Virus record (IMG/VR): IMGVR_UViG_3300005326_000051
Span: 1-58,240 of that record
DNA length: 58,240 nt
From: a virus
Lineage: Duplodnaviria; Caudoviricetes
Reading direction: 5' to 3' (one strand)
A program made the translations under genes and the position numbers. Below, piece after piece: positions 9,690 to 56,048 of the stretch. The stretch's first letter is position 1, and the number at the start of each line of letters is the position of its first letter. The notes beneath the pieces were generated by a model that saw only the letters and a list, made by a program, of their open reading frames with translations, made no database searches and was not told the DNA's origin.

Positions 9690-12600
9690 ATGAGTATTCT
9701 TGATGATGTAGAAGAAGTAGGAAGTGATGCTACTAAGATTGACCCACGCGAAGTTCCTCCATTTGATATCACTGTTCCCAAAGGTACATCAGATGAAAAG
9801 CTGAAAACTATCGCTGAAGATGTACATAAAACTGGTTACCTTGATCAAGATAAGTACGGACAGAACTTGAAGTTGAAACCAGTAGTACTGAAGACTTCAA
9901 GTCTACTTGATGATATTGAGAGTGGAGAGGTGTCTTCGCCAACAGAAAAAACTACTCCAGTTACTACTGAGCCAAAAAAATCTTCTCCGTTTATAAAGTT
10001 TATGGAGGGTGCAGGTAACGCACTTGGAGATCAGACTCCTCCGGAATCTTTGTACGGTGATACAAGTTCTCTTCGTAAGGGAACTATGTCTGCTGCAACA
10101 GGACTTGCCTCGTACATACCAGCTGGCTTATCCATGTCTGTACCAACACTTGAAGAACTTTCTAGTTGGTTATTTCCAGCTGAGACTGCTGGACGTCCAC
10201 TAAAAACACAGTTAGGAGAACGTGCTGAAAGATCTAAAGGTGTTCAAGAAACCTTTACTTACACTCCAAAAGATAAAGAAGCTCAAAGAGTAGCAGAAGT
10301 ATATGGAAGACCATTTACATGGCTTGCAGATAAAGGTCACGAAAGTGAAAAGTACTGGCTAAAGAAAGCTGAAACTGCTGATATGTACGGAGATAATCTG
10401 ACAAGTAAGTACTACAATGCTGTTGCGTTTCTTTCTGGATTTGGCGGTGAAGCACTTCCATTTATAGCTCCGTACGGTTTTAAAGCTGTTAAAGGTGGCA
10501 TAAAGGACGTATGGAATGACCTACCAAGAAACAAGCGAATTCAGGTGGTAAGTGCTGTAGATAACATGCGTATAAACCTTGAAACAGATAAGCTTACTCC
10601 AAAACAAGTACGTGAACTTTGGAAGAATGGTGATGCTGCTACAAGAGATTCTCTTCGTAATAGGTACACTATGGGAAGAGAAGCAAATCCAAAGGCTGAT
10701 ACTACTACTCCAGAAAGCATGGCTCCGCCAGAACCTAAGCCCGAAACAATTCTTGCCAGTGGAGCAAGTGAACAGGCGCAACTTCCTCTTGATAGAATGG
10801 GTAGAGTTGTAGCAGAACATCCAGTAACTAAGATGGTAAAGGATAGTATTAACTTTAAGAATCCGTTGCTTCCGTCACCACCAAATCTGGGAGAAGGTTT
10901 TACTATGGTTGATGTTCCTCCAGTTGTAAAGAAGATTCCTTCATATACAGCTGGGCAGGAGCAGGATATTGATGTTGACTTTAATCCAACTGTACAGAAA
11001 AATGGTAATCCGTTTGCAACAGAAACTGCTGCACTCAGAGCTGCAGAGAAAAAAGGAATATCCGCAAAGCTTGTTGAAATAGTTAAAGTTAGTGGTGGCT
11101 TCGGGTATAAAAGGCCTGGAATTCCTTCACAAAAGACGAAGAGTATCCTCGATGAGATCGAGCAGATTGATCAGGCCGAAACTGCAATGCCAAAAGTTTC
11201 TGAGTTTGCTGAACCTCCTGCTCCTCGGATGATTGACAAGACTGCTGAAGAAATCAATGCCGAGGGCAATCACGAAGGTCTTACTGTCGCAATGCGTGAT
11301 GAGGGGGAAGTCTATACTGGAGAACCTGGAAACATTCACGCAGATGTGATTGAGGCTAATAACCTTCCTTGGAACTCTGAGCGTGGGTGGGTAGACAAGA
11401 AAGGTAACTTCATTCCTGCTGATCAAGCTGCCGCGGAAGCTCGAGTTGAATCCATCTTTGCGGAAGGCAAAAAGGCTCGTGAACTTGCCGAATCAGAAAG
11501 GTCAAAAAGTGACCCGGCAGTAGAGTACAAACGTCAAGCTGAAGAAGCTGGTGTCTCCTTTGATGGAATGCAGGAACGTCCGGGCAAGCCACCTATCCCA
11601 ACCTTTCGTGATCCTGAGACCAACGCGAATATCTACCTCAACGAAGGTGAGAATCTTCCAGAAGCTGTTGCAAGGAAACGTGCTGAGTTTAAAGCTACAG
11701 AAGAGCCAGAGAAGAAGCTTGTTCCAGCAATAAAGGTCGGGGATGAAGTCTATATAGCTGAAGTTCCGGAAGGAAGTATTCATGGAATGATCTGGAATGA
11801 TATGCCTGACTTTGCTAAAGCTAAGGCAGAGAACACACCTCCTAAAAGTGGCTGGGCATATCCAGATAAAACTGGATTCACTACGGAGAAGCCTGTCCAG
11901 GTAGAACCTACATATACGGCTGGTACACCTGTTGTCAACCCAAAAATTCCTCGAACCGAAGCCAAGAAGACCAGTATACCAGTGGAGCAGGAAGGTAAGT
12001 TAGTTGAGCAGAATGCCAATGCTGCTCCAGTAAAAACTGATATTACTATTTACTCAGGTATTCCAATCCACGAAACTCTAAACGTCCTTCGTGACCTGAA
12101 AGCAAATGCAGAGGAGGCAATACCGTACCTTGAGTCTATTGGCAAGCGAGCCTATGAGAATGGTAAGCAAACTTTCAAAGACTGGTCATCAGAAATGCAG
12201 CGAGTACTTGGAGATCTGTGGGGTAAGTTTACTGACTTTCTTAAAGACATCTATTATAGTTTTGAAGAAATTCTCAACAACGAGCGCGGAGATACTGGCG
12301 GACTTTACAAAGGTGAGAAGATAGCCAAACACAGAATTATCCGTAAGTCTGAAAAGACTAAGCTTAACAAAGCAATAAACAAGCATGAGATTATTCAGGA
12401 CAAGATTCGTGCAGAACTTTCTGAACTTACTGGAAAGAATGGTACAGGCAAATTCGAAGAACTTAAAGCAAAACGCATAGCTGAGTACGAGCAGCGTCTT
12501 GCAAGACTTAAGAGTGATGCTGCAAAGTTCAGACGTGAAGGTTGGCAGAAAGCAATTGAGACTGTAAAGAAGAAAGAGTACAACAGTCATGTCAAGCATC

Positions 12601-14684
12601 TCGAAGCAGCAGACCGTAGGCTTAGCAAAACTATTGACAGACTCAAGACAAAGGCCGAAACCACCTATGACAAGAACGATGTACTTGCACCAGTTATAAC
12701 TGTGCCAGAACGTGATGCTGTTATGAGTCTTCCTGATATGGATTGGAAACCTGCGGGTGGTATTACACAGAATCCTATTTATACACTGGAAGCATGGGGA
12801 AGGAACCTTGGTGACAAGGGAAAGAAAGTAAAGGAGCTATTCTACTATCCTGTACGTGAGGCAACAGATAGGGCAGATAGGCATTTCGCCAGTATTCATA
12901 AACAGTCTGAAGCGCTAGAAAAGTCCTTACCTTCCGGCTCTTCGAAGCGCATATACCTTCACGCGCTTGCACAGCAAGGCGAGCATGGTGCTGCAATTCT
13001 TAAGGAGATGGGTATTGATAAGATTCCTACACTTACTCCAGAAGAAATGAAAGCATACAACTGGATGCGAAGAGGTTTCGAGGTTCTCTACGACAAGATT
13101 AATACTGGCAGATGTGCAGCAGGTCTTGACGAATTTGGAAAAGTGGATAACTACTTTACCTTTGGGCGAGAACTTTCTATGTCTGAGCTTCTTGGATTCG
13201 GGATTGAAGATCCGTTTCTGAGTGACTACCTGCATCCGAAGGGCACAGACTTCAAGTCTGCTCTTCGGCGTGTTGGTGGACTGAAGAAAGCAAAGTTAGA
13301 CGCTTTCAACATCTTCAATATGTATGTTCAGTCTGCAGTGAAGCACATGTATCTCTCCCCAGAGATTGCTAAGATGCGAGAACTGACTGGAAAGTTTGAG
13401 CTAGACAAAGTCGACAGCATTGGCAGGAAGTACAAAGAATCTTGGAAGATGCAGGAGAAGCTTCCTCGTTCCTACAAAATGCTTACAGACTACATTGACT
13501 TTGTTGCTGGTAAGAAGAAACGCTTATTCCCAAGAAATGTTGAAAGAGTCGTTGATACACTTGGAACAAATATTACCTTTGCTACACTGTCAGGTAACAT
13601 GCGAAGTGCAAGTATTCAGCCAACTGCTTTACTGAATACTTACGTAGAGATCGGACCGAAGTATACTGTTAAGGGCGTTGCAGATTTGTTTACTGACGAG
13701 CGGTACAAAGCAATGCAGAAATCTTTAGTCCTGTTCAACAGAGAGTTCGACGTAAATGTCAAGCCCACAATGGAAGGTGCGCTTGGTAAAGTTGGAAAAG
13801 CGCGTGAAGCATTTAACAAAAGCTGGTTAGGAATGAAAACACTCAAGGCCCTCGACATGGAAACAGCTACTGCTACATGGCTTGGAGCGTATGAGAAGGG
13901 TAAAACAGTTGATGGACTTTCTGAGAAGGACGCAATTTACTATGCTGACGATGTGGTTATTAAGACGCAGGGTTCTGCTGCAAAGCAGGACATTGCTCCA
14001 ATTCAGCGCAGTACTGTTGGTAAGTTCTTTACTACCTTCCAGACCTTTGTTATCAACAACTGGAATTGGTTGTGTAAAGAAGTTGCCGGACTGAAGAATG
14101 CAGATATAAAAAATCCTGCTGCAGTAAAGAAAGTTCTTCGGTATGTTATAGGAGCGGCACTGATTAATACCTTCTTCGAAGATATACTTGGTTGGAATTC
14201 TCCACTTCCTTCACCAATAGGTTCTGCGTATAAGGCCTATAATAAGCAGATGGTAAAGAATCTGCATGCTCGTAAGGAGGAGAACAAGAAGAGTCCACTA
14301 AGAGTTGCAGCATTTACAGCAGGTCTTGAATTCCTACAATTGATTCCTGGCCTCGGCAATGCAAGATACGGCTCGAGTTTCCTTGGTGCGCCAACTGAGT
14401 TTATCGGTGACGTTAGTTCTAAACTTGCCGCAGAGAGTGGAATGTACAACGGGTTTACTCCATCATGGCTAGAGATTGGTGGAAAAACTATGGGACTTCC
14501 TGGAACTGTGCAGGCTCGTAAAGCAATTAACTTCTTTGCCCCGAGTGATTCAAAAGTGAAGAGGCAAGAACGAGAAAAGAAGCAAGAGGAGGAGTACGAT
14601 AAAGGATTTAAGTCATTTGACAGTGGCAATTCCTTTAGAACATTCAGCAGTGATAAAACATTTAAAACCTTTAAAGGTCAATAA
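9690..14684 (+). CDS. large internal virion / ejection protein (1664 aa)
   Basis: Size and position. C-terminal helical region ADDVVIKTQG...KFFTTFQTF resembles large podovirus ejection proteins. Confidence 0.65.
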   Translation: MSILDDVEEVGSDATKIDPREVPPFDITVPKGTSDEKLKTIAEDVHKTGYLDQDKYGQNLKLKPVVLKTSSLLDDIESGEVSSPTEKTTPVTTEPKKSSPFIKFMEGAGNALGDQTPPESLYGDTSSLRKGTMSAATGLASYIPAGLSMSVPTLEELSSWLFPAETAGRPLKTQLGERAERSKGVQETFTYTPKDKEAQRVAEVYGRPFTWLADKGHESEKYWLKKAETADMYGDNLTSKYYNAVAFLSGFGGEALPFIAPYGFKAVKGGIKDVWNDLPRNKRIQVVSAVDNMRINLETDKLTPKQVRELWKNGDAATRDSLRNRYTMGREANPKADTTTPESMAPPEPKPETILASGASEQAQLPLDRMGRVVAEHPVTKMVKDSINFKNPLLPSPPNLGEGFTMVDVPPVVKKIPSYTAGQEQDIDVDFNPTVQKNGNPFATETAALRAAEKKGISAKLVEIVKVSGGFGYKRPGIPSQKTKSILDEIEQIDQAETAMPKVSEFAEPPAPRMIDKTAEEINAEGNHEGLTVAMRDEGEVYTGEPGNIHADVIEANNLPWNSERGWVDKKGNFIPADQAAAEARVESIFAEGKKARELAESERSKSDPAVEYKRQAEEAGVSFDGMQERPGKPPIPTFRDPETNANIYLNEGENLPEAVARKRAEFKATEEPEKKLVPAIKVGDEVYIAEVPEGSIHGMIWNDMPDFAKAKAENTPPKSGWAYPDKTGFTTEKPVQVEPTYTAGTPVVNPKIPRTEAKKTSIPVEQEGKLVEQNANAAPVKTDITIYSGIPIHETLNVLRDLKANAEEAIPYLESIGKRAYENGKQTFKDWSSEMQRVLGDLWGKFTDFLKDIYYSFEEILNNERGDTGGLYKGEKIAKHRIIRKSEKTKLNKAINKHEIIQDKIRAELSELTGKNGTGKFEELKAKRIAEYEQRLARLKSDAAKFRREGWQKAIETVKKKEYNSHVKHLEAADRRLSKTIDRLKTKAETTYDKNDVLAPVITVPERDAVMSLPDMDWKPAGGITQNPIYTLEAWGRNLGDKGKKVKELFYYPVREATDRADRHFASIHKQSEALEKSLPSGSSKRIYLHALAQQGEHGAAILKEMGIDKIPTLTPEEMKAYNWMRRGFEVLYDKINTGRCAAGLDEFGKVDNYFTFGRELSMSELLGFGIEDPFLSDYLHPKGTDFKSALRRVGGLKKAKLDAFNIFNMYVQSAVKHMYLSPEIAKMRELTGKFELDKVDSIGRKYKESWKMQEKLPRSYKMLTDYIDFVAGKKKRLFPRNVERVVDTLGTNITFATLSGNMRSASIQPTALLNTYVEIGPKYTVKGVADLFTDERYKAMQKSLVLFNREFDVNVKPTMEGALGKVGKAREAFNKSWLGMKTLKALDMETATATWLGAYEKGKTVDGLSEKDAIYYADDVVIKTQGSAAKQDIAPIQRSTVGKFFTTFQTFVINNWNWLCKEVAGLKNADIKNPAAVKKVLRYVIGAALINTFFEDILGWNSPLPSPIGSAYKAYNKQMVKNLHARKEENKKSPLRVAAFTAGLEFLQLIPGLGNARYGSSFLGAPTEFIGDVSSKLAAESGMYNGFTPSWLEIGGKTMGLPGTVQARKAINFFAPSDSKVKRQEREKKQEEEYDKGFKSFDSGNSFRTFSSDKTFKTFKGQ
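11495..11514. repeat. dispersed palindromic site 1/11 (AGAAAGGTCA-AAAAG-TGACC)
   Basis: Read directly. Intragenic. Confidence 0.85.
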
Positions 14685-14695
14685 ATGACCTTTCT
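14673..14695. repeat. dispersed palindromic site 2/11 (AAAGGTCA-ATAAA-TGACCTTTCT)
   Basis: Read directly. Overlaps the stop codon of the ejection gene. Confidence 0.9.
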
Positions 14696-16811: not shown

Positions 16812-18029
16812 TTATACGGTATACGATGTATCAGTGACTCTATACCACACTCCCTTTTCACCTTTTGGCCCCTTAAATTCCCGAGCAACTTTACCAGTCT
16901 TAAGCAAGGTATCTATAACGTTGTCAAACTTTGCTCCGTCTATATCTCTCCAGATCTCAGACATGAGTTGTTTCTCAGATACCCATCGCTTAGCTTTGAT
17001 TATGCTCAGAACAATATCAACCTCAGCAGAAATTTCAGATCTCCCAATAGCTTTAAACGCGTTGCCCATCAGATACTCAACGTCTTTGATCTCTGACATA
17101 GCCTTCTCTACTTGGTACCAGTGCAGTAGAAGCTGGTTTGTCTCTGCTGCTGCGCACAACATAGCAACTTTCAGTATGTACGTTGGTTTTCTTGAGTACC
17201 AACCACTAAAAGATTTGTCTGTGCAAACGCGTATACCAGACTCGTCTTCGTCATAAGTATCGTACCAATCTGTCCAGCGTTTTAAACAGTCCGCTGTCAT
17301 AGCATAGTTTCCACCCATGCGACTAATCTGAAACAAATCCCTTTCAAGTTTATCCTTAAGTTTAACTTCATCTTCCGTCATTGCTGGTACAGCAACGGAC
17401 TTCTTTTTCTTATCTGCCCAGATGAAAAGTATTCGGCTTGTCAAACCACCGCCAACTGCTGTAGCTGGAAGTGAACTTGCAAGACTGTCTGGTGTTGTTG
17501 CAGCAAGCAAATTTACCCACGGCCTAACAATAGCATTAGAAGTCCCGTGTCTTGTCCTGCTCTTCCACTCATCTGGGCAGTCGAATAAATCTGTAAGCGC
17601 AGTCAGCATCCTTGTATTCTCTTTCTTCTGTCCAAGGAATGATTCGAACTCCTTTGAAATAATGTTCAAGGAACTATGCATCAGTGTCTCTCCACTATCC
17701 ATCAGCGCTTCGCCCTTTGCAAGTTCAATATCATCTGTCATAGCCTCCTTTGTTGCCGAGTCTGCACTCATTCGTATATCTGGGATTGTATTTAAAAAGT
17801 TAACTCCGTACTTTATTGCTTGCGTTTTCCTGGCTACACCGGGTTCTGCAACGAAGACTACATATATGTTCGGGTAGTATGTAAGTCGTCCAAGTTGCAG
17901 ACATACCTTTCTTCTCAGTGCCGCAGCTATTACTGCATACCCAGTCCATTTATCAAACGCTCTAGCTGGCTCTGTCTCCTCCATCAAGAGTTGATAACCC
18001 TCTAACCAGTTCTTCAATAACCTGCTCAT
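16812..18029 (-). CDS. DUF3987/YfjI-like P-loop NTPase (replicative helicase candidate)
   Basis: YPNIYVVFVAEPGVARKT (Walker A-like), SKEFESFL, GGGLTSRILF, C-terminal winged-helix-like region. Confidence 0.75.
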   Translation of the reverse strand: MSRLLKNWLEGYQLLMEETEPARAFDKWTGYAVIAAALRRKVCLQLGRLTYYPNIYVVFVAEPGVARKTQAIKYGVNFLNTIPDIRMSADSATKEAMTDDIELAKGEALMDSGETLMHSSLNIISKEFESFLGQKKENTRMLTALTDLFDCPDEWKSRTRHGTSNAIVRPWVNLLAATTPDSLASSLPATAVGGGLTSRILFIWADKKKKSVAVPAMTEDEVKLKDKLERDLFQISRMGGNYAMTADCLKRWTDWYDTYDEDESGIRVCTDKSFSGWYSRKPTYILKVAMLCAAAETNQLLLHWYQVEKAMSEIKDVEYLMGNAFKAIGRSEISAEVDIVLSIIKAKRWVSEKQLMSEIWRDIDGAKFDNVIDTLLKTGKVAREFKGPKGEKGVWYRVTDTSYTV

Positions 18030-18699: not shown

Positions 18700-19170
18700 T
18701 CATATATACATCTCCAGCAAAGTTGCTAGTTCCTCTACGTTTCTTACGCGCTGATGAGAAAGCTGAATACATCTGTTGTAAGGTCTATCTATGACGATTA
18801 CCTTAGAGTAATCTGCAAACAGTGGATAATCATCGACAAGTACATCGTCTTCACTAAGTAGTTGAAGTTTATGTGCATCATAGATAACGTGTCCAGTAGG
18901 TAAGTGTTGCTGCAACCATATTTTAGTATGCTTAATCCATGACTCTGGCTGAGAAGTTATAACGTGTACAGGATTAAATCTGCTTACTATGTAGTTGAAG
19001 TACTCTGTTACTGGTGCAACTTCAAGAAGTTTTGGATGCTTAGAGTAGTACTTTACTACACTTAAACCACTTATTTTCTCTGTCCAAGCTAGTGGACAGT
19101 ACCCAAGATGACCGTGCAAGTCTCTTAATACCTGATCAAGATCAAAATAAATCATACAACATTCCTCCAA
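18700..19170 (-). CDS. HAD-family 5'(3')-deoxyribonucleotidase-like protein
   Basis: YFDLDQVL (HAD motif I), VITSQP, LVDDYP, IDRPYNR. Confidence 0.75.
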   Translation of the reverse strand: MEECCMIYFDLDQVLRDLHGHLGYCPLAWTEKISGLSVVKYYSKHPKLLEVAPVTEYFNYIVSRFNPVHVITSQPESWIKHTKIWLQQHLPTGHVIYDAHKLQLLSEDDVLVDDYPLFADYSKVIVIDRPYNRCIQLSHQRVRNVEELATLLEMYI

Positions 19171-21539: not shown

Positions 21540-21922
21540 TTAACCTCATCGAAATCGAAAGTTTTTACGCACGGTGGAACAACTGCAACATCAGTGGATT
21601 CCTTATCAGGCTTTAACAATTTGCATCCCTTGATATCAACAATATCTTTCTTAATACTTTGATTTGGCTTGTGCCAGATGAAGCGAACAACACGACTCTC
21701 TGCAACAGCCATGTTAATGGCTTGTTGAATTGTCCAGATCTGTTCGTAGACTACTGGCTTTCTGTTCGCCTTGTTCAAGGCGTTCTCATGCTCAACAGCG
21801 GCCTCGAGTTCATCAAACTCTTCCTTGTCTGCAGTAGTCACATACTTCCAGATAGGAAGATTCTTTCCTTGAATGAGTCGTTTAACTGGAATGATTGGCA
21901 TCAGTATCCTCCTTTACTGGTT

Positions 21923-21942
21923 GGTCAATTTTTGACGTTTCT
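21923..21942. repeat. dispersed palindromic site 3/11 (GGTCA-ATTTT-TGACGTTTCT)
   Basis: Read directly. About 165 bp downstream of the ParB-MTase gene. Confidence 0.85.
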
Positions 21943-22105: not shown

Positions 22106-23437
22106 TCATTTCACACCTCTCAACTTAGCCATTCTTGAAACAGCAAGTGCGTAGTTCTCAATGCTCTTCTCGCATCCAAGACTCAATACCTTCATCTGTA
22201 ATCCCGCCTCAACCAGTGCACCACTACCCATGCAAGGATCAATCATGTACTGTCCAGGTAGACACACTCTCGATATCAGCTCCTTGCAAAGCTCTACTGG
22301 CTTTTCGGCCTGATGTACCCGTTCGGAGGGCAGTACTGGGTCACACTGAATCCAGTCGGGTCTTCCTTGCAGGACAAGACTAGAGTTTGGTTTTCTTCCG
22401 AATAGCACAAACTCATACGCAGAGCTGAACCATCTCTCAGGTTGATTGTTCTGTCCAGTTGTTCGCTTAATCCAGACGATGGGGCGCGGGGCGACAAGCC
22501 AACCAGCAAGCTCCATTCTTTCTTTAAGCCACCAGAAGTGACTTGGCGCACAGAAAATGAGCGCATGGCCTGTGTCTTTTGTGACTCGGTAAGATTCAGT
22601 GACGAGTCTTTCAAGAAGAGCTTTAGCATAGCCTTCACTGTCGTCATAGGTAGTTCCAGTTCCTGTAATGCTTCCACCTGTTTCTCCTCCAACTGTCATA
22701 GCAACGTCATGAATGTCTATACCGTAGGGCGGGTCAGTAAAGAATAAGTCTACTGTGCCTGTTCCAATACCGGCAAGATATTCTTCAGCTGCTTTGTTTA
22801 CAAGAATGCACTCGTCAGATTTCTTAATGATATCTTCATAAGATGTGAGTGCTTGCATCTGCCGCTGTACATTTTCAATTCCCTTCACAGCTTTTTTAAT
22901 ATCTGACTTTGATTTACACTCACTGAGGTTCGGGAACTGTTTAATCGCCGCGGCAATCTGAAGTTCTTCAATGACTGAACCTTTTGTCTTACCAAGCATT
23001 TCTGCAGCATCTTCAAGTGTGAACCCACCTTCCTTACCCTGGACAGGCGTACCATGAAGCTTACGTTTCAGTGCAACCATTTCGTCTACTGCAAGAGCGT
23101 ACTCAGCTGGAGTAAGTTCCTCACGCTGAAGATTCTCTTCAAGCTCAAGCTCACGTAAAGTAAGCGGATCAAGCACATCCTTGTAACATACGCGAGCCTT
23201 ACGGCCAAGCAGCATACATGCCGCAAGCCTACGTCCACCGGCAATCAACGTGTTGTCTCTTGCTATCAGGATTGGCAGAAGTTGACCGTACTTCTTTATC
23301 GACTCCACCATCTTCTCAATCTTTACAAGATCTTTTCTTTGCCGAGGTCGTTCTGTACTGATGATAACATCAGTAGGTTCCATCTCGAAAATAAGTTCTT
23401 CGCTAATTTGTGTCTGTACTTTCTGTTCCTCATTCAT
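22106..23437 (-). CDS. ParB/Srx domain + HTH + N6A/N4C DNA methyltransferase fusion
   Basis: GQLLPILI...IAGGRRLAA...EENLQRE (ParB). TLEDAAEMLGKTKGSV (HTH). TDPPY, HQAEKP, DPCMGSG (beta-class MTase). Confidence 0.9.
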   Translation of the reverse strand: MNEEQKVQTQISEELIFEMEPTDVIISTERPRQRKDLVKIEKMVESIKKYGQLLPILIARDNTLIAGGRRLAACMLLGRKARVCYKDVLDPLTLRELELEENLQREELTPAEYALAVDEMVALKRKLHGTPVQGKEGGFTLEDAAEMLGKTKGSVIEELQIAAAIKQFPNLSECKSKSDIKKAVKGIENVQRQMQALTSYEDIIKKSDECILVNKAAEEYLAGIGTGTVDLFFTDPPYGIDIHDVAMTVGGETGGSITGTGTTYDDSEGYAKALLERLVTESYRVTKDTGHALIFCAPSHFWWLKERMELAGWLVAPRPIVWIKRTTGQNNQPERWFSSAYEFVLFGRKPNSSLVLQGRPDWIQCDPVLPSERVHQAEKPVELCKELISRVCLPGQYMIDPCMGSGALVEAGLQMKVLSLGCEKSIENYALAVSRMAKLRGVK

Positions 23438-24008: not shown

Positions 24009-24031
24009 AGAAAGGTCGCATTTTGACTTTT
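24009..24031. repeat. dispersed palindromic site 4/11 (AGAAAGGTCG-CATTT-TGACTTTT)
   Basis: Read directly. Intragenic. Confidence 0.75.
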
Positions 24032-24176
24032 TGGCTGATGAGCTTTTTTTCGCTACTGGGATTCTTTCCAAATCCTGTGCCCGTTTAAGTCTATATTCTA
24101 CTATAAATTTTAATTGCTCTTCTGGTGAAGACCTTCCGAAGTTCTGGTACAGGTTTTCTAACCGCACAAATTCCTC

Positions 24177-25174: not shown

Positions 25175-25250
25175 TGGTCGGAGCAGGAGGATTTGAACCT
25201 CCGACCTCTCGCTCCCAAAGCGAGCGCGCTACCAACTGCGCCATGCTCCG
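25175..25250 (-). tRNA. tRNA-Pro(TGG)
   Basis: 76-nt cloverleaf: CGGAGCA/TGCTCCG acceptor stem, CTCGC-TT-TGG-GA-GCGAG anticodon arm, GGTTCAAATCC T arm, encoded ACCA. Confidence 0.97.
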
Positions 25251-28548: not shown

Positions 28549-28568
28549 AGAAAGGTCATTTATTGACT
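28549..28568. repeat. dispersed palindromic site 5/11 (AGAAAGGTCA-TTTAT-TGACT)
   Basis: Read directly. Intergenic. Confidence 0.85.
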
Positions 28569-28585
28569 ACGTTGCTGATCAACTC

Positions 28586-31062: not shown

Positions 31063-31192
31063 TGGGGACGGAGGCAGGATTCGAACCTGCGGCCTCGTCA
31101 TTAGTAGTGAAGTAACTGTGATCTACGCTACATTTCTGAGAGTAATCGAGCACAGAAATTTTCGCGCTCTAACCAACTGAGCTACTCCGTCC
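31063..31192 (-). ncRNA. tRNA-shaped RNA (130 nt) with the anticodon arm replaced by a permuted Y-RNA module
   Basis: G-GACGGAG/CTCCGTC-C-CCA acceptor, D arm GCTC-AGTTGGTTA-GAGC, T arm GCAGG-TTCGAAT-CCTGC. Insert CTGTG-CT-CGATTACTCT-CAGAAATG-TAGCGTAG-AT-CACAG-TTACTTC. Confidence 0.88.
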
Positions 31193-33621: not shown

Positions 33622-33646
33622 AGAAAGGTCAATTTATGACGTTTCT
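33622..33646. repeat. dispersed palindromic site 6/11 (AGAAAGGTCA-ATTTA-TGACGTTTCT)
   Basis: Near-perfect 10-5-10 palindrome. Intragenic. Confidence 0.92.
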
Positions 33647-38450: not shown

Positions 38451-38482
38451 TAAGTATTTGCAAGTGTTTGTATTTTTAACAT

Positions 38483-38502
38483 GGTCATTAATTGACCTTT
38501 CT
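38483..38502. repeat. dispersed palindromic site 7/11 (GGTCA-TTAAT-TGACCTTTCT)
   Basis: Read directly. Intergenic, just upstream of a promoter. Confidence 0.9.
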
Positions 38503-38518: not shown

Positions 38519-38547
38519 TCAGAGTAGGTAGGTTTCACCTACTCTGA
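38519..38547 (-). terminator. hairpin / possible terminator
   Basis: TCAGAGTAGGT-7 nt-ACCTACTCTGA. Weak T tract. Confidence 0.45.
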
Positions 38548-38956
38548 TTGGTAAAGCCAAGTAAATATATGCAGCCTAGTTCGCTCTCACAGCAATCCTG
38601 AATCCGCCGAAGTGGTTGAAGGTGAATACAAAGCCAGCATTGTACAAACCAGTAAGCATCTTCACTGCTTTGTTTTTCGTATCCGTAGTCAGGTCAACTA
38701 CGCGTACCCGCAGATGAAACTTGTTCGGTTCGTACATCGGACCAAGAGCACGTCTGGCAGCAAAGATCGGTTGTTCCTTGGTGTCATACATATCAAAGTA
38801 TTCCTTGCTCACTACTCGCTTTTTCTTCTTGCCAGCTTCTGCGTTCCTGTTCTTCATTTTTCACTCTCCTTTACTTTACTAGTTGTCTGGTCTTGCTAGT
38901 CTTGATACGAAGCATGAAGACCAAGGTTGGGCAGGATAATACCTGCCACCGATTCC

Positions 38957-38976
38957 AGAAAGGTCATTTTTCGACC
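38957..38976. repeat. dispersed palindromic site 8/11 (AGAAAGGTCA-TTTTT-CGACC)
   Basis: Read directly. Confidence 0.85.
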
Positions 38977-39150
38977 ATTTCACTTACACTTCATCCAAGC
39001 AGTGCTGGTTGTTCCACTTAACTGGTACTCGCAATATCCCGCCTTCGCCATGTTGTCTATGTGGCCACAAGCAATCAGTACAATTAACACTACTGCTACT
39101 GCAAATACAGTAAACGCGATTAACCAACCTAAAGCTTCTTCAAACATTTT

Positions 39151-42739: not shown

Positions 42740-43300
42740 TATTTAATAGTGTGAATGGTGTAAACACGTTAAATACGTGAAACGTGTTGAGACGCAAATT
42801 GCAAATCGAAAATTGCGTACGGCTTCCACCCATTTCTATTTACACTCTTTACACTCTTTACACTCTTTTAAGCGTTTCTATTTCTTTTCTCAGCTTTCCT
42901 TCTCTCAGTGTTTTGCTAAGTGTTTTTCTTTTTCTTTATCTTTTCTATTCATTACTATTATTTTATATTAATAATATTATTATAAGTATAAAAGAACAAA
43001 GACAAGACAGAGAAAGACTGAACAAAACACTGACAAAGACAGAACTAAGAAGACAAGAAACACTGGGACAAAGGCATCTAAGATAGTCAGAAAATATGGG
43101 CAAAAATGGGGACGCCTATTCAAATTTGCGATTTGCGATTTGCGACGATGATTCTTTACACTATTTACATTATTTAATCCGTTTAAATGGTCATTTTTTG
43201 ACCTTTCTTAATTAATTTTAAATCAGGTTTAAAAAGCTTCAGCTTTTTGATTTTTCGTGCTTTCTGCAATACCCCAGACTTTTGGTTAATCTGCTTTAAA
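42740..43300. other. candidate replication origin
   Basis: Non-coding. Near A/T-only core at ~42950-42990, pyrimidine-to-purine switch, tandem TTTACACTC x3 and TTTGCGA x3. Confidence 0.5.
43189..43208. repeat. dispersed palindromic site 9/11 (GGTCA-TTTTT-TGACCTTTCT)
   Basis: Read directly. In the candidate origin. Confidence 0.9.
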
Positions 43301-44838: not shown

Positions 44839-45363
44839 ATGGGTGGACAAGGAAGTGGAAGAGTACCAATCCCCGTTGACCTCGCTGCCGCGTTGGACTT
44901 AATTGATCGCGGGGAGAAGGTTCCGGCAATTGCTGAAGAACTTGGTATCAGTGCTCCAACACTTCGTACTCGGATTGCGGAGATGCAGAAGAAGCAGGGA
45001 TTGCTCCTTCAGTACCGCGCAATTCAGTCCCTCCAACTTACCGCTCTCCAGGCACGAATTCTGGAAGCAATCACACCTGAAAAAATTAATGAAGCCCCGT
45101 TGCGAGACCTGATCGCGGGGTTCAAGATACTCAAGGATAAAGAACTGAACATTGAAGGAAAACCAAGTGAGATCAAGGGCCTGGTTGCTCATCTCATCTA
45201 CCTTGAAAAGCAAGAGTCTGCCTTGAAGAACGGGGAGCCACTCCCGGCGGACTTTGAAGACGCGGAGTTTGATGACAGCCGGAACGAGGGCATGCCTGAG
45301 GAAGATGACTGCCCTCCTGGTAAAGCAAACTCAATTTCCGAATTAGACAAGCAGGAACTATAA
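44839..45363 (+). CDS. terminase small subunit candidate (HTH)
   Basis: MGGQGSGR N-terminus, HTH VPAIAEELGISAPTLRTRI, acidic tail. Upstream of TerL. Confidence 0.6.
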   Translation: MGGQGSGRVPIPVDLAAALDLIDRGEKVPAIAEELGISAPTLRTRIAEMQKKQGLLLQYRAIQSLQLTALQARILEAITPEKINEAPLRDLIAGFKILKDKELNIEGKPSEIKGLVAHLIYLEKQESALKNGEPLPADFEDAEFDDSRNEGMPEEDDCPPGKANSISELDKQEL

Positions 45364-45366: not shown

Positions 45367-45792
45367 ATGGCAGAAATTTCTACTGGAATGGATTTTGCGG
45401 ATACGCCTGTACTTACGGAGAAACCGCGTAAGCCCTCCTTCAAGGAATACTATAAAACTGTTCCAGCAGAAAAGAATAACGTAGAAGACTTTGATCTTGA
45501 AGCTGCGTATAATGACTTACCTTACGCTACAATGAAAGAGTTTGCTGAAACGGATAAACATCTTGATCGCGGAGACAAGTACAAGAAACCTAACCACAAG
45601 ACATTTAGCACCGAGTCAATTTATCACTCAAAGGAAACTCCTGGTGGTAAGTGGGAAAAGAAGAATAACAAGTGGATATTTAAGGCTTCAAAACATAATG
45701 TCAAGAATGCTGGCGGAGCAGATGCTTTGAAAAAGTATTTTGCAGAACATGATAAGGACTCTGAACTTGTCCTTCCAGAAGATGATGAGTAA
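45367..45792 (+). CDS. conserved phage protein of unknown function
   Basis: DKYKKPNHKTFSTESIYH...GGKW motif. Confidence 0.55.
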   Translation: MAEISTGMDFADTPVLTEKPRKPSFKEYYKTVPAEKNNVEDFDLEAAYNDLPYATMKEFAETDKHLDRGDKYKKPNHKTFSTESIYHSKETPGGKWEKKNNKWIFKASKHNVKNAGGADALKKYFAEHDKDSELVLPEDDE

Positions 45793-46060
45793 GCCGAAAA
45801 GTCATAAATTGACCTTTCTTGGACGGCGGGGGAAATGCAGGAAATGCAGACGCAACACACACTTGGAGAGACACCACGTTACCTACTCTCCAGTAAAGAT
45901 CGCGCGAATCTGCCGATTCTGCCATAAGAAGATAACGGAAATCAATACGCTGATGTCGCAGAGCACCCGGCCCTTCCATCAGCTTTCAAATAGTGAACGG
46001 GTCTTAATCTGGACTGCGTTCTTGAAGCATAGACCAAAGGCCAGGACTTCTGAAGAGTAA
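45782..46060 (+). CDS. HNH-like Zn-binding protein next to terminase
   Basis: CRKC...LERHH..Y...ICRFCH. Confidence 0.65.
   Translation: MMSKPKSHKLTFLGRRGKCRKCRRNTHLERHHVTYSPVKIARICRFCHKKITEINTLMSQSTRPFHQLSNSERVLIWTAFLKHRPKARTSEE
45800..45819. repeat. dispersed palindromic site 10/11 (AGTCA-TAAAT-TGACCTTTCT)
   Basis: Read directly. Confidence 0.85.
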
Positions 46061-46189: not shown

Positions 46190-48661
46190 ATGGAATTAAC
46201 AGGAAGTAACATTAACAAGGCAGTCTTGAATAGATTGAAAGAGTGGAAGAATTCTCCACTTCAGTTTGTTAAAGAATGTCTTCATGCTACTCCATCTGAG
46301 CAACAGATTGATTTCCTTCTTAAACTAGCAAAAGAAAAGCGTATTACGATTAGGTCAGGGCATGGTTGTCATGCAGCAGGTACTATAATTCATCTTTATC
46401 CATACGGGTTTAAAGCTGTGGAAGATGTAGAAGTTGGAGATCTTCTTATGGGTGACGATAATACTCCTAGAAGAGTTCTTGAACTGTACCGTGGCAAAGA
46501 AGAAATGGCGCGAGTCAAGTATTCTGATAATACTTATTACGATGTAAATATGAGCCACAAACTTGCACTAGTTTGTACTGGAAGTAAAGGTAAGTATAAA
46601 TCTGGTGATATGTTTGAGATGTCTGTACGAGAATTTTTAACTTGGCCTGAATGGAAAAGAAAAAGATTTGCTGGTTATAAAGTAGCAATAGACTATCCAG
46701 AAATTCCTGTGATGATTCCTCCATATATTCTTGGTATGTGGCTTGGAGATGGGTCACATAACGCTATTGAAATAACTAATATTGATACTATGTTAATAGG
46801 TATATGGCAGTTATTTGGTGAAGCTAATGGTTTGAGCATGACTACGACTTCTGATAAACTGCATAGACTTGTAGGAGATAAAAGTATTGTTAATGATGCT
46901 TTTAAACATTATGGCTTGTTTGGTAATAAGCATATTCCAAAAGAATATTTGTTTAATTCTAAAGATGTGAGACTTAAGTTACTTGCTGGTCTTATAGATA
47001 CAGATGGGTATGCTGATACTAGAAGTGGACTACAGTTTCAGATAATTCAGAAGAGAAAAGATTTAGCAGAAGATATACTATTTCTTGCTCAGTCATGCGG
47101 TATTCACGCTACTCTTACATCCAAAATAAAAAGTTGGGAGTACAAAGGGCAAGTAAATTATGATACTTACTACGAAGTTCATATGTCTCGGAATACTGAA
47201 CAAATTCCTACACAGTTAAAACGTAAGCAGTCTACTGAAGATTATAACAAGCAAAGAAGTAATCTGCATTTTGGAATATCTATTGAAAAATTACCAGAGA
47301 ATAGTTATTATGGATTTGAAGTAGATGGAAATCATCTGTATGTTCTTGGTGACTTTACTGTAACACGAAATACTGGTAAGGATGCCAGTGCCGCATGGGC
47401 AATCTTGTGGTTTTCGACCACTCGCGCCTACGCTAAAGTTGCCTGCACCGCTCCAACAAATCGGCAGTTGAAGGACGTTTTAGTTTCCGAGATTTCAAAG
47501 TGGTTACGTGGGTCAGAAATTGCTGATGAGTTCGTAATTCGCAAGGAAATAATCTTTCACAAAGAAGCTCCACGTGAATGGTGGATAAGGTTTATCTCTC
47601 CATCAGTTCGTGCTACAAAGGAAGAACAGGCCGAAACTCTGGCTGGGTTGCATGGCGATCATTTACTTATAGTTTGTGACGAGGCCAGCGGTATTCCTGA
47701 CCCCACATTTATCCCACTTGAAGGAGCTATGACCCAGCCAGACAATAAAGTTTTGCTTATTGGAAATATGACTAAGAACACTGGTTATTTCTATGATACC
47801 CATTTTCATAGTGAGATTTCCAAAGACTGGTGCAAACTTCACTGGGATAGTAGGCAGTCGTCTAACGTTGATAAGTCAATGCCTGAGTACTTTGCAAAGA
47901 AGTATGGTATTGACTCTGACGTATACAGAATTCGTGTTATGGGTGATCCTCCTGTGCAGAACACGAACAGCCTTATTCAGTTGTGGACTGCTGAGCAGTG
48001 CATTGGAAACGAGATACTGGTTGCGGAGGATGAGCCACTTTATCTTGGTGTTGACGTTGCAAGATATGGCGATGATGCTTCTATTATCCTCCCACGACAG
48101 GGCCTGATTATCCATCCTTGGGAAGAGTTTAGAAAACTTAATACCATTGATCTTGGTGGATTTATTATGCAGACGTACCAGGAAGTTGGAGCACATGGCT
48201 GTGCTATTGACTCTATTGGAGTTGGTGCTGGAGTTGCTGACTGGCTTGAGAAGCATAACCTTGAGAACCTGTTTCAGATTAATGTTTCTACTTCTTCTAG
48301 TGATATTAAGAAATACAACCGTCTTCGTGATGAGTTGTGGTGTAGAGTTCGTGATAATTGCTTATTAGGTAAATACTCTTTCCCAGATGTCATTATAGAC
48401 GGAGAGAAGGAATCGTTGGGAAGACAGCTTGCGAATGAGCTTGCCACTGTGCGGTATAAGTTTAATGGGCATGGAGGCTATGTTGTTGAGTCTAAGAAGG
48501 ATATGCGGGCTCGTGGTGTTGCCTCTCCGAACATAGCTGATGCGCTCTGTCTTACGGAGTACTTCTCCAACGATGCTACAAGAGTTTTCGCTAAACCAAA
48601 AGAAGAGCCAAAAAGAAACTATAGTGACAGACAGTGTTCTGCGCAGTCATGGATGAGTTAA
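46190..48661 (+). CDS. terL: terminase large subunit containing an intein
   Basis: Spliced Walker A SGHG/TGKD, CTAPT, LAGLHG, VCDEASG, IGNMT. Nuclease motifs LGVDVARYGDD, IDSIGVG, SPNIADAL. 488 aa after splicing. Confidence 0.95.
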   Translation: MELTGSNINKAVLNRLKEWKNSPLQFVKECLHATPSEQQIDFLLKLAKEKRITIRSGHGCHAAGTIIHLYPYGFKAVEDVEVGDLLMGDDNTPRRVLELYRGKEEMARVKYSDNTYYDVNMSHKLALVCTGSKGKYKSGDMFEMSVREFLTWPEWKRKRFAGYKVAIDYPEIPVMIPPYILGMWLGDGSHNAIEITNIDTMLIGIWQLFGEANGLSMTTTSDKLHRLVGDKSIVNDAFKHYGLFGNKHIPKEYLFNSKDVRLKLLAGLIDTDGYADTRSGLQFQIIQKRKDLAEDILFLAQSCGIHATLTSKIKSWEYKGQVNYDTYYEVHMSRNTEQIPTQLKRKQSTEDYNKQRSNLHFGISIEKLPENSYYGFEVDGNHLYVLGDFTVTRNTGKDASAAWAILWFSTTRAYAKVACTAPTNRQLKDVLVSEISKWLRGSEIADEFVIRKEIIFHKEAPREWWIRFISPSVRATKEEQAETLAGLHGDHLLIVCDEASGIPDPTFIPLEGAMTQPDNKVLLIGNMTKNTGYFYDTHFHSEISKDWCKLHWDSRQSSNVDKSMPEYFAKKYGIDSDVYRIRVMGDPPVQNTNSLIQLWTAEQCIGNEILVAEDEPLYLGVDVARYGDDASIILPRQGLIIHPWEEFRKLNTIDLGGFIMQTYQEVGAHGCAIDSIGVGAGVADWLEKHNLENLFQINVSTSSSDIKKYNRLRDELWCRVRDNCLLGKYSFPDVIIDGEKESLGRQLANELATVRYKFNGHGGYVVESKKDMRARGVASPNIADALCLTEYFSNDATRVFAKPKEEPKRNYSDRQCSAQSWMS
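46367..47371 (+). mobile_element. intein with LAGLIDADG homing endonuclease in the TerL P-loop (335 aa)
   Basis: Starts CHAAGT, ends DFTVTRN with +1 Thr. LGMWLGDG and LAGLIDTDG motifs. Confidence 0.93.
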
Positions 48662-48884: not shown

Positions 48885-51842
48885 ATGACTAGTGAAAAAG
48901 AGCAGAAAATTTTAACAGAAGCTAGAGATAGACTTAAAAAAGCTATAACAGATGATGATGAGAATCGTCGTCTTGCGTATAATGATCTAGAGTTTATTGC
49001 TATTGAAGGTAAGCAATGGCCAGACGCTATTCGAGTAGAGCGTGAAGCGAATAATCAACCATGCTTAACTATTAATAAACTTCCAGCATTTGTTGATCAG
49101 GTAGTTGGTGATCAGAGAATGAATAGGCCATCTATCAGAGTTGTTCCGGTTGACTCGTATGCGGATAAAAAGGTGGCAAGAATTCTTAGTGGCTGGATTA
49201 AGCATGTGCAGAATATCTCAAAGGCTGATATTGCAGTAGATCACGGTTTTGAACACGCAGTAACCTGTGGTTATGGAGCAATAAGAGTAGTTACGAAGTT
49301 CCTGTCTGATACTTCTGTTGATCAACAAGAGGCTTTTATTGAGAAAGTTGAAAACGCGCTCGCAGTTTACTGGGGCAAACATAAGGAGTATGACTGTTCT
49401 GATGCAAAGTATTGCTTTATAGTATCTGATATTGATAGAGAAGAGTTTGAAGATAAGTATAAAGTTCCTCCAATGCCGTTTAACTATACTGATAGTCAGT
49501 ATGTTGAAGGTTGGTGTACTAACGAAACAGTTAGAGTTGTTGAGTACTTTGTGAAAGAACCCACTGAAAGAATGATTTATCTGCTTTCGGATGGTAGAAC
49601 TGTAGATAAAGTCGAGACAACTGATATCGTTGTAAAGAAAAGAAATGTAAAGTCACATAAGATTATGTGGTATTTACTTTCTGGGAATAAAGTTCTTGAC
49701 AGTAAAGAGTGGGCAGGAAAGAAGTATATTCCTGTTATTCCTATCTGGGGCAAAGAACTTAACGTCGGTGGAAAGAAGGTTATTCGTGGACTTATAAGGA
49801 ATGGAAAAGATGCTCAAAGAATGTATAATTACTGGCAAGCTCTTGACTTAAATACGCCTATTCCAATTCCTGGTGGATGGACTACTATGAAAGATGTAGT
49901 AGTCGGCAGTCAGCTTTTTGACGAAGCTGGTAAAGTATGTGAAGTTACAAACATAAGTCCTGTTTTTCTTAATAGAAACTGTGCTGAAGTTCTGTTTGAT
50001 GACGGCTCTGTCATTACTGCTGACGTTAAACATCTATGGACTGTTGAAGAAAGAGGAAAGAGAACTTCCCGTTCCTATAGTTGGACTAAGCGTACTATTA
50101 CTACAGACCAATTAATTCCAGGAAAGCATTTTATCTATGTTGCTGATCCTTTAGATTTACCTGCTCAAGAACTTCCTATAGATCCATATGTGCTTGGTGT
50201 ATGGCTTGGCGATGGTTCTGTTAGAGATGTTGTTATAACACAAAGTAAGGATGATTGGTCAGAACTTTCACAGCATCTTAGTAAGTGTGGATGTCAGTTT
50301 GGTACTAGTACTATAAAGGATAATTGCGTAGCAACGACATTGCTTGGAATGCGTAGCAAGTTTAGTGAGTTAAGTTTACTTGATAATAAGCACATTCCAT
50401 ACTTGTATGTAAGAAGTTCAAAAGAGCAACGACTACAACTGCTGCAAGGTTTAATGGATACAGATGGTTCAGTAAATACTGTTAACGGGCAGTGTAGTTT
50501 TACTACTACAAGTGCAGAGATTGCTAAAGGATTTTCAGAGCTTATAAGAACTCTTGGTATTAAATCTAGTTTCTTGGTTAGAAATAGAAACGGAGCTAAT
50601 GTTTTTGATAATGCTAAGTTGCAATACCAGTTTAGCTTTACTACTAGATTAAATGTATTTAAATTATCAAGAAAGCTTAAAGGTATTGGAAATGTTAAAG
50701 AAGAAGTACGAAGAACTAAAAGGTACAAGATTAAAAGTGTTACTCCAGTTTTGTCTGTACCAGTTAAGTGTGTTACTGTTGATAGTGCGTCATGTTTGTA
50801 CCTTGCTGGAGTTGGTATGGTTCCTACGCATAATTCGTGCGATACTGAAGTGGTTGCACTTCAACCAAAGACTCCATACCTTATTACTCCGAAGCAAATT
50901 AAGGGTCATGAAGCACAGTGGAAAGATGCACACAGACGAAACTTCCCATATCTCTTAGTTAACTTTGATGAGAAGGCTCCGGGCTGGCCAAAAAGAGAAT
51001 CTCCTCCACAAGCTTCGAGTGCTATGGTTGAAAAGATTCAAATGGCTGATCAGGAAATGCGTGATACTATGGGCCTGCAGAAAGCAAGTCTTGGTATGCA
51101 GAGTAATGAAAGGTCTGGATCTGCAATAAGGGAACGTAAACTTGAAGGTGATGTTGGTACGTTTGCCTTTATTGATAACCTTTCACGCTCGATACAGCAG
51201 GTTGGAAGAATTTTGGTTGATATAGCTCCGGTAATTCTTGATACGCAGCGAATAGTACGACTTGGACTTGAAGATGGAGATTTTGAGTTTGAAGAAGTAA
51301 ATGTACAGGACAAAGAAAATCCTCAGCAGATTATGAATGATCTGTCTATTGGTACTTACGACGTTACTGTTACTGTTGGCCCAAGCTTCACTACACAAAG
51401 AACCGAAGCACGGCAGTCAATGCAGGAATTTATTCAGTACAATCCAAATGCAGCACCGTTGATTGGTGACTTGTACGCTAAGTTGATGGATTGGCCAGGA
51501 GCAGATGAGGTATCAAAGAGACTTGAGTACCTACTTCCTCCAGAAATACGTACTGAGATCATTACTAAGCGTGCATTGAAGGAAGGTAAAGAACCTCCTC
51601 CACAACCAGGAAGTGAATCTCAGCAACCTGACCCGACTATGGTGTTGAAGATTCAGACTGAACAAGTTAAACTTCAGGAAGCACAGATTAAGTTACAGCA
51701 GGAGCAAGCTAAGCTTGAGGAGATTAAGTTAAGGCAGCAGTTAGCTATTGCTGAATCTAGACAAAGAGTTTCTGATATGGTTGAAAAACTTATAGCAGAG
51801 AAACTTGGTGAAAGGGAAAAGGAAAATGCCGAAAGGGACTAA
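48885..51842 (+). CDS. portal protein (P22-like) containing an intein
   Basis: GKQWP, PCLTINKL, YIPVIPIWG, DAQRMYNYW, SGSAIRERK, GTYDVTVTVGPSFTTQR. 653 aa after splicing. Confidence 0.93.
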   Translation: MTSEKEQKILTEARDRLKKAITDDDENRRLAYNDLEFIAIEGKQWPDAIRVEREANNQPCLTINKLPAFVDQVVGDQRMNRPSIRVVPVDSYADKKVARILSGWIKHVQNISKADIAVDHGFEHAVTCGYGAIRVVTKFLSDTSVDQQEAFIEKVENALAVYWGKHKEYDCSDAKYCFIVSDIDREEFEDKYKVPPMPFNYTDSQYVEGWCTNETVRVVEYFVKEPTERMIYLLSDGRTVDKVETTDIVVKKRNVKSHKIMWYLLSGNKVLDSKEWAGKKYIPVIPIWGKELNVGGKKVIRGLIRNGKDAQRMYNYWQALDLNTPIPIPGGWTTMKDVVVGSQLFDEAGKVCEVTNISPVFLNRNCAEVLFDDGSVITADVKHLWTVEERGKRTSRSYSWTKRTITTDQLIPGKHFIYVADPLDLPAQELPIDPYVLGVWLGDGSVRDVVITQSKDDWSELSQHLSKCGCQFGTSTIKDNCVATTLLGMRSKFSELSLLDNKHIPYLYVRSSKEQRLQLLQGLMDTDGSVNTVNGQCSFTTTSAEIAKGFSELIRTLGIKSSFLVRNRNGANVFDNAKLQYQFSFTTRLNVFKLSRKLKGIGNVKEEVRRTKRYKIKSVTPVLSVPVKCVTVDSASCLYLAGVGMVPTHNSCDTEVVALQPKTPYLITPKQIKGHEAQWKDAHRRNFPYLLVNFDEKAPGWPKRESPPQASSAMVEKIQMADQEMRDTMGLQKASLGMQSNERSGSAIRERKLEGDVGTFAFIDNLSRSIQQVGRILVDIAPVILDTQRIVRLGLEDGDFEFEEVNVQDKENPQQIMNDLSIGTYDVTVTVGPSFTTQRTEARQSMQEFIQYNPNAAPLIGDLYAKLMDWPGADEVSKRLEYLLPPEIRTEIITKRALKEGKEPPPQPGSESQQPDPTMVLKIQTEQVKLQEAQIKLQQEQAKLEEIKLRQQLAIAESRQRVSDMVEKLIAEKLGEREKENAERD
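49839..50834 (+). mobile_element. class 3 (Ala1, W-C-T) intein with LAGLIDADG endonuclease in the portal (332 aa)
   Basis: Starts ALDLNTPIP. Block B HLW, block F VKCVTV, block G PTHN with +1 Ser. LGVWLGDG and LQGLMDTDG motifs. Confidence 0.92.
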
Positions 51843-55843: not shown

Positions 55844-56028
55844 AAATGTATTACTTGGTTCAGGAAAAGTTGTTGTAGAAAAAGCTCCACCGGAACCAGA
55901 AGTAAGCTTATTTCCTCGGTGGATTTACCACAAAGAACTGGCTCCTGTTATTTGTAAAACAGAAGAAGAATTCAAAGGACTGAAAGCAAAGGGTTATGAC
56001 TTTCATGATGTTGTGTTTCCACCTGCCG

Positions 56029-56048
56029 GGTCAAAAATTGACCTTTCT
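56029..56048. repeat. dispersed palindromic site 11/11 (GGTCA-AAAAT-TGACCTTTCT)
   Basis: Read directly. Confidence 0.9.

Follow-up and report, generated by a model that had tools for sequence, protein, structure and literature searches.

Dispersed palindromic sites in an uncultured phage lineage as candidate loading sites for a ParB-methyltransferase fusion protein

Eleven dispersed sites in a 58-kb phage genome

The DNA analysed here (hereafter the window, 58,240 bp) is the whole of IMG/VR virus record IMGVR_UViG_3300005326_000051, which is classed as linear and rated 100% complete. It carries eleven dispersed copies of a short element built around the palindromic core GTCAA-W3-TTGAC, together with a gene, g20, coding for a ParB-like protein fused to a DNA methyltransferase (ParB-methylase). 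The element and its possible relation to g20 are the subject of this report. Genes lie on the plus strand from position 1 to ~16.1 kb, on the minus strand from 16.2 to 43.9 kb and again on the plus strand from 44.0 kb. The head genes are P22-like (portal PF16510, coat PF11651), and the genes related to replication encode a family-A DNA polymerase, a DUF3987 primase, a Sak4-like ATPase, a PD-(D/E)XK exonuclease and the ParB-methylase. A DNA search against GenBank phages gave no match to the window. In a phage protein collection, the best match to the capsid protein was 36% identical and the best full-length match to g20 was 26% identical. This is apparently a lytic phage without a close cultured relative.

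The eleven sites had been listed by a first-pass annotation of the sequence, which considered chance an unlikely explanation for them. A scan of the window recovered all of them (Table 1), and their enrichment over shuffled sequences is clear. The full 25-mer with up to three changes matches five times, compared with 0.01 expected, and none of 100 dinucleotide-preserving shuffles reached five. For GGTCA-N5-TGACC with at most one change, 100 shuffles averaged 1.16 matches and never exceeded 4, whereas the window has 13. Ten of these 13 are among the eleven sites and the other three are at 3936, 36551 and 44337; the remaining site (core 24015) is two changes away from this pattern and so falls outside the count. 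TGACCTTTCT is present in nine exact copies in the window, all of them preceded by GTC(A/G)-N5 (9/9). With a weight matrix derived from relatives and window together, and 50 mononucleotide shuffles as control, we obtained scores of 21-38 bits for the eleven sites and a shuffle peak of 14.9 bits. Elsewhere in the window all scores stay below 10 bits, save for a second-strand score of 12.5 bits at 45801. Since no other position reaches 10 bits, 3936 and 36551, which had been proposed as weaker candidates, are dropped together with 44337 as chance look-alikes. The observation of eleven dispersed sites is confirmed.

Table 1. Sites and candidate reader genes in the window (core, first base of the 13-bp core; score, weight matrix; ORF, open reading frame; HTH, helix-turn-helix)
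Feature	Coordinates	Strand	Core	Score (bits)	Context or annotation	Counterparts in relatives
Site 1	11495..11519	-	11501	21.1	inside giant gene g10 (9690-14684, +), antisense	antisense, 1.0-2.1 kb into g10 homologue, in six (G002, G003, G004, G006, G007, G008)
Site 2	14671..14695	+	14677	29.4	spans g10 stop, 27 nt before g11	sense, after g10 homologue (G001, G004, G007, G008, G009)
Site 3	21918..21942	+	21924	26.1	in small ORF g19, between g20 and g18, antisense	antisense, between g18 and g20 (G001, G002, G007, G009)
Site 4	24009..24033	-	24015	25.9	CGAC in one half; inside ORF call g22, sense; ~580 nt upstream of g20	equivalent position (G003, G006)
Site 5	28549..28573	-	28555	33.4	gap between g32 and exonuclease gene g31, sense	sense, g32/g31 junction (G002, G003, G004, G006, G007)
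Site 6	33622..33646	both (.)	33628	30.3 (+), 31.7 (-)	g45/g44 junction	in g44 homologue (G001, G002)
Site 7	38478..38502	+	38484	29.4	180-nt gap g55/g54, antisense; follows hairpin	
Site 8	38957..38981	-	38963	32.5	GTCG in one half; gap g56/g55, sense	
Site 9	43184..43208	+	43190	34.1	185-nt gap g67/g66, antisense	
Site 10	45795..45819	+	45801	37.9	directly after g72; overlaps 5' part of HNH-like ORF	sense, directly after g71 homologue (G001, G002, G003, G004, G006, G007, G009)
Site 11	56024..56048	+	56030	35.1	15 nt before adaptor gene g82, sense	sense (G002, G004, G006, G007)
g20	22106..23437	-			ParB N-domain and HTH fused to beta-class DNA methyltransferase (PF01555); proposed reader	
g71	44839..45363	+			HTH protein resembling small terminase (HTH_23 E=1e-4; small-terminase PHROG E=0.007, weak); rival reader	
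g15	16812..18029	-			DUF3987-type primase (PHROG primase 2.5e-54, PF13148); rival reader if sites are origins	
HNH-like ORF	45740..46060	+			unannotated; CxxC...HH...CxxCH pattern; weak endonuclease/HNH-like matches; between site 10 and large terminase	

To describe the element, relatives were sampled as 94 loci (1.34 Mb) fetched around capsid and polymerase homologues. In this lineage, the consensus from relatives and window spans ~32 bp and is mostly asymmetric: MAG-N7-GTCAA-W3-TTGAC-N-TTTCT-K-R. Its palindromic core, nGTCAA-W3-TTGACn, measures 13-15 bp, in keeping with the ~14-16-bp palindromic site of parS type. We compared 100 distinct GTCA-W5-TGAC sites: (T/A)TTCT flanks the core on a single side in 95 of them and on both sides in the remaining 5, and the side opposite to it bears MAG 7 nt from the core plus an A-rich stretch. 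These flank features are constant across genic contexts. The left AG and the right CT mirror each other but are displaced by 3 nt. Which base flanks the core depends on the genome: the window has C, relatives G001 and G007 have A, and G002 has G. Because the flank is one-sided in this lineage, the element is oriented and is not a full 25-bp palindrome. The symmetric palindrome described at first is thus only partly right for this lineage: in the window, the AGAAA/TTTCT flank occurs on both sides at 33628 (site 6) alone. Likewise, the 5-nt spacer, described as always A/T-rich, is not purely A/T throughout, with a G in 11501 and 24015. To our knowledge, none of the consensus sequences of IHF, LexA, CtsR and similar factors fits the element.

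Placement, conservation and DNA-level character of the sites

The first-pass annotation had named conservation in relatives as a check on the sites and had seen no orientation bias relative to transcription; both points hold. In G001-G009, compared syntenically at ~70% protein identity, the junctions and orientations of the sites are conserved. The whole records of these nine genomes contain 6-14 copies each, and a reversed-pattern control contains 0. Counts are 9-14 in near-complete close relatives and 8-16 over all near-complete genomes counted. Although ORFs cover 94.6% of the DNA, 71 of 95 distinct sites from relatives and window lie outside ORF calls (binomial p 7e-69). A typical site directly follows a stop codon, and the ribosome-binding site and start codon of the next gene come 3-35 nt later. 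Both orientations are used between same-strand genes (32 sense vs. 27 antisense, p=0.6). The spacing of the sites is more even than random placement, with a coefficient of variation below the simulated mean in 13 out of 13 genomes (Fisher p ~1e-5, a combined value that overstates independence because the genomes are related). Avoidance of ORFs, conserved junction and orientation, copy number and even spacing indicate that selection acts on the sites. Two local arrangements were also observed: in relatives, the motif directly abuts the ends of tRNA-like genes (L228 at 5309; L229 at 3497), and in the window three tandem GCAAATC copies (43125-43150, minus-strand reading) lie in the gap downstream of site 9.

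The sequence TTGAC resembles a -35 box, and the sites could be read as promoters used by the polymerase of the host, perhaps helped by a phage factor. However, conservation ends with the motif and no -10 box accompanies it. Start codons are found 3-30 nt past the motif, which leaves a -10 box no space, and near half of the sites point against the genes. A sigma-70 promoter, with a -10 element 16-18 bp after the -35 and room for a transcript start, was rejected accordingly. The same lack of space and of transcription bias agrees with the earlier rejection of a promoter-operator role. A small selfish mobile element would account for the variable site counts given above and for the g77/g78 junction site, which is present in only some relatives, whereas conserved position and orientation argue against recent mobility. 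Promoter or mobile element, taken together, are very improbable.

Because most sites lie right after a stop codon and shortly before the next Shine-Dalgarno sequence and start, they might act in RNA, as an intercistronic hairpin serving as weak terminator, processing site or translational operator. TTTCT follows the stem, and a terminator scan flagged sites 7 and 9. These two were, however, flagged on the strand opposite to the genes, and about half of all sites are antisense to local genes, where the RNA would read differently. The stem has five pairs, of which two are G-C (3/6 counting the variable flanking base). Pairing past this 5-bp core is weak, with 43 of 93 Watson-Crick pairs at -1:13 vs. 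30 expected. An extended hairpin was rejected, since neither the pairs from -1:13 to -6:18 nor the shifted ones rise clearly above chance, save for the invariant AG/CT. Stem variants within the window are uncompensated, and the antisense site inside the 5-kb g10 is conserved. An intrinsic terminator (G+C-rich stem, U run, fixed orientation) was likewise rejected, given the short stem, the TTTCT tail and the sites in antisense. We regard a function in RNA as improbable. With asymmetric flanks, both orientations, weak pairing, uncompensated variants and a conserved antisense intragenic site, the sites look like a signal at the DNA level that is read by a protein.

Such a protein might be a nicking or cutting enzyme, for instance the HNH-like ORF product, or the sites might be a packaging signal. 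The localised nick sites of T5, phiKMV and tf share with our sites a short conserved consensus, ~4-14 occurrences per genome, similar positions in relatives and apparent co-evolution, which in phage tf is proposed to link site and nickase (available text of PMC3517423). According to the same text, those nick sites are confined to one strand; they are also not palindromes. Here the core is palindromic and both strands are used (in the window, six sites on the plus strand, four on the minus strand and one on both). The HNH-like ORF has homologues in seven of nine close relatives and none was detected in G024, G027 and G029, which carry the motif. Nicking or packaging signals are, like a function in RNA, improbable.

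A last possibility is that the phage recruits a host factor to the sites. We scanned 596 Gb of bacterial and archaeal genomes (species representatives) and found 33 motif matches, with no piled-up copies in any bacterial chromosome. The first-pass annotation had held that an equally frequent host-factor motif in the host chromosome would refute its reading; no such frequency was seen in the genomes scanned, and by this measure the sites are phage-specific. The core differs between phage lineages and its flanking base differs between close relatives, so a phage-encoded reader fits better than a host factor, which we consider the least probable of the readings. Among the matches of the scan (L274-L306), the multi-match cases are ten short contigs of a 'bacterium' bin of metagenome-assembled sequences, four contigs of an 'archaeon' bin and a 49-kb 'Micrarchaeota' contig, all of which are probably phage DNA binned with cellular genomes. 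Single matches in contigs of metagenome-assembled genomes of Desulfobacterales, Syntrophales and Geobacter may hint at the host range.

The ParB-methylase and other candidate readers

The protein encoded by g20 combines the parts expected of a reader with an enzyme. Its N-domain scores 61 bits against TIGR00180 (cut-off 58.45), and residues 28-157 align to the structures of ParB, Spo0J and Noc, including Box II (GGRR), Box III (ENLQRE) and the HTH. The HTH comes directly after the N-domain, the alignment to ParB chain 7o0n reaching residue 157. Residues G67, G68, R69, R70, E100, N102 and R105 are invariant in 14 homologues, as are the ParB boxes as a whole and the DPPY motif of the methyltransferase, which is intact in g20. 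In the predicted fold (predicted local distance difference test score 78.6), the N-terminus resembles Noc over 195 columns and the C-terminus resembles CcrM and M.BceJIV.

The g20 gene co-occurs with the sites. It is the only HTH protein common to every palindrome-bearing genome examined, and five out of five near-complete records (at least 90%) found via the motif alone encode a homologue. The relatives G010-G014, in which nothing but the head module is shared, lack the motif, the g20 gene and the entire replication/terminase module, and counting k-mers and palindromes de novo gave no equivalent motif in them. Conversely, the distant motif-bearing phages G024, G027 and G029 share the replication/terminase module and not the head genes. 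In Desulfofustis phage MD01 (L403, OP947158.1), a relative with a host assigned from CRISPR spacers, the ParB-methylase is 27% identical to g20 (E 2e-41). Of five small candidates only g20 was found there, g71, g39, g32 and g28 not being detected.

The palindrome itself varies with the lineage. A homologue profile search for g20 returned 308 loci, of which the best 80 (34-70% identity) were used. At least one GTCAA-type site is carried by 48 of the 80 and at least two by 37, and 15 of the other 32 loci carry a different dispersed palindrome of like build. The variant cores are GTTTAA, CGTAA, GTACAA, TTCAA, GTGAA and GTCCCAA, and an AA-W-TT centre is common to all of them. The corresponding palindromes include GTTTAA-W3-TTAAAC, AGGTAnCGTAA-W3-TTACG, GTCAACSGTTGAC and GTGAATAATTCAC, as well as AGAAGGTACAA-W3-TTGTACTTTCT (10-11 per genome) and AGATAGTTCAA-W3-TTGAACTATCT (10 in 47 kb). 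Four genomes counted whole (G047, G048, G053 and the Desulfofustis phage) have 9-11 copies each. In other lineages, the element is a perfect 25-29-bp palindrome, CCAGAAArGTCAAwwwTTGACyTTTCTGG, while G015 keeps the core with AGTAA flanks. MD01 carries nine copies of a 25-bp perfect palindrome, GCTATGTCCCAAwTTGGGACATAGC, at gene junctions between 232 and 43004, with five successive gaps of 6.9-7.8 kb. The paper describing MD01 is silent on these palindromes (it has no occurrence of 'ParB', and 'palindrom' appears solely in connection with CRISPR). Each core type pairs with its own recognition helix in the HTH of the g20 homologue. In a residue-base covariation analysis of nine genomes, too small a set to carry weight, six g20 columns separate A-type from C-type genomes and no g71 column does so. 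As a separate observation, tandem iteron clusters occur in two relatives, made of 8-bp TGTAATGN units in L329 (31-118, 444-487) and of TATTCACTAA units in L176 (4364-4499); they may be origins or operator arrays.

The comparisons above, all of them indirect, support the first-pass suggestion that the sites bind a dimeric protein genome-wide, in a parS-like manner, and are not promoter operators. Promoter, terminator, nick-site and host-factor readings fit worse than sites for the ParB-methylase. We propose that the sites are parS/OB-like loading sites for g20, with a probability of about 45%.

Several points weigh against this proposal. A symmetric dimer leaves the one-sided flank and the 3-nt displacement of AG unexplained. 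Residues 219-439 of g20 are the methyltransferase and there is no C-terminal dimerisation domain; in addition, none of the 90 window ORFs scanned gave a ParA-like match. With a methyltransferase at its C-terminus and no ParA match, g20 is therefore not a canonical partition ParB. The match between helix and core follows clades and amounts to ~6 changes only, which are not independent events, and the helix varies much within the GTCAA type. Moreover, the ParB-methylase travels with the replication module (PolA, primase, Sak4-like ATPase, exonuclease), so co-occurrence cannot single g20 out. No motif was recognised in 17 of the 80 ParB-methylase loci (inspected were L320, L327 and L332, plus a whole-record pattern count for G051, L383). 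G049, which is complete and has a 55% identical ParB-methylase, shows no site of this build, and Vibrio phage vB_VspS_VS-ABTNL-3, with a 24.6% identical homologue, shows no dispersed palindrome family. Finally, an unbiased 6+6 palindrome detector found at least three copies in 10 of 53 ParB-methylase sequences, but two in the window and four in the ParB-less G012; this statistic was discarded as insensitive.

Sites for another phage protein rank next after the ParB-methylase, at a likelihood that we judge rather low. This protein might be g71, which has an HTH and whose homologue directly precedes a site in seven relatives (in the window, the site follows g72). However, g71 was not detected in G036, G047 (92% complete), G048 (99%) and MD01 (complete), which all bear palindromes, and its recognition helix is nearly unchanged between GTCAA-type and GTTTAA-type phages. 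It might also be the primase g15, the palindromes then being multiple replication origins. Homologues of g15 are present in eight of nine relatives and in G024 and G027, and in MD01 a gene annotated as DNA primase adjoins the polymerase. Origin palindromes of some viruses have an A/T-rich centre like the AA-W-TT that every core variant shows here. On the other hand, eleven origins in 58 kb would be unusual and no DNA-binding domain was identified in g15 by the domain scan. A transcription regulator is the third variant. The core of site 7 ends 32 nt upstream of a good sigma-70-like promoter before g54 (38450-38422, minus strand; TTGATC-17-TATAAT, with an extended -10, TG before it), and the site lies between this promoter and a long hairpin after g55 (38520-38550). 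PDB sequence searches with g10, g71 and g55 gave nothing useful.

Returning to the ParB-methylase, the sites would be specific double-stranded DNA binding sites for a phage-encoded protein, most likely g20. A g20 dimer would recognise nGTCAA-W3-TTGACn through its ParB-type HTH. Nucleotide binding might then close the N-domains into a clamp, as for ParB, KorB and Noc, and the clamp would leave the site and slide over neighbouring DNA. With sites placed every ~5 kb, g20 and its methylase could reach all of the phage DNA and would disregard the host DNA, which is site-free. Binding, clamping and sliding, methylation in cis and effects on transcription or packaging are all inferred for g20. In its strict form, in which the clamp loads only at lineage-specific palindromes every 5-7 kb and then methylates the DNA over which it has slid, so that the phage marks its own DNA and the host DNA stays unmarked, this mechanism is doubtful. 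Organising or insulating the genome might be a further role of the bound clamps.

Some other features of the window were recorded. The family-A DNA polymerase (19152-21539, minus strand) has an N-terminal uracil-DNA-glycosylase-superfamily domain at residues 7-153. The large terminase (46190-48661, plus strand) and the portal (48885-51842, plus strand) both contain homing-endonuclease domains (Hom_end, LAGLIDADG_3), with a Hint domain in addition in the terminase; both resemble intein-containing genes. A tRNA-Pro (TGG) gene (25175-25250, minus strand) lies among the replication-arm genes. A Ro60-like gene with TROVE and vWA domains (29081-30424, minus strand) adjoins an ORF-poor stretch, in which a 126-nt element (31066-31191, minus strand) matches a tRNA model at 47.7 bits, with no tRNA called by ARAGORN. 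This element might be a Y-RNA-like partner of the Ro60-like gene, with a tRNA-like domain.

Relation to known systems and significance

The closest known system is KorB with its OB sites on the IncP plasmid RK2. RK2 has about a dozen KorB sites over a ~60-kb replicon, and site count and genome size are similar here. KorB is a CTP-dependent clamp of the ParB family which loads at a 16-bp palindromic site, slides up to ~1.5 kb and controls promoters 4 bp to >1 kb from its sites (available text of PMC11790492). KorB retains its C-terminal dimerisation domain and has KorA, IncC (ParA) and TrbA as partners, whereas g20 has a methyltransferase, with no ParA found. The setting also differs, being an apparently lytic phage replicon with a longer site and an oriented flank.

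Over its first ~200 residues, g20 matches Noc, Spo0J and ParB in sequence and predicted fold, the DNA-binding domain included. Noc binds many palindromic sites scattered over the chromosome. Noc acts by membrane tethering and ParB by segregation with ParA, both without enzymatic fusion, whereas g20 has a methylase, and the site sequences are unrelated. One phage protein acting on scattered sites is also known from the dispersed centromere sites of phage N15 (SopB) and the dispersed C1 operators of phage P1. N15 and P1 are temperate plasmid-prophages whose sites serve partition or immunity, with no methylase involved.

The fusion of a ParB-CTPase fold to an N6_N4 methyltransferase is frequent in phages and prophages according to a PNAS 2025 survey (PMC12704722), the available text of which assigns it no DNA site or function and suggests anti-defence. 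A full-text literature search for the motif strings gave primer or nuclear-receptor contexts and no phage among the matches listed, and a search for conserved intergenic palindromes in phages gave nothing like these sites among the matches listed. The sites are thus without earlier description in the literature searched or in the available text of PMC12704722, and dispersed candidate sites for such a fusion would be new.

Our finding supplies concrete candidate DNA sites for the ParB-methyltransferase fusion. As the sites differ between phage lineages, natural specificity swaps are on offer. If g20 does load at them, the idea of loading and then sliding would reach beyond segregation and silencing and include the delivery of an enzyme along DNA. 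The retention of about ten evenly spaced palindromes by a large group of uncultured phages would then be explained as well. If, in addition, the phage marks its own DNA in this way, this would be a new distinction between self and non-self DNA, and the ParB fold would have a new function.

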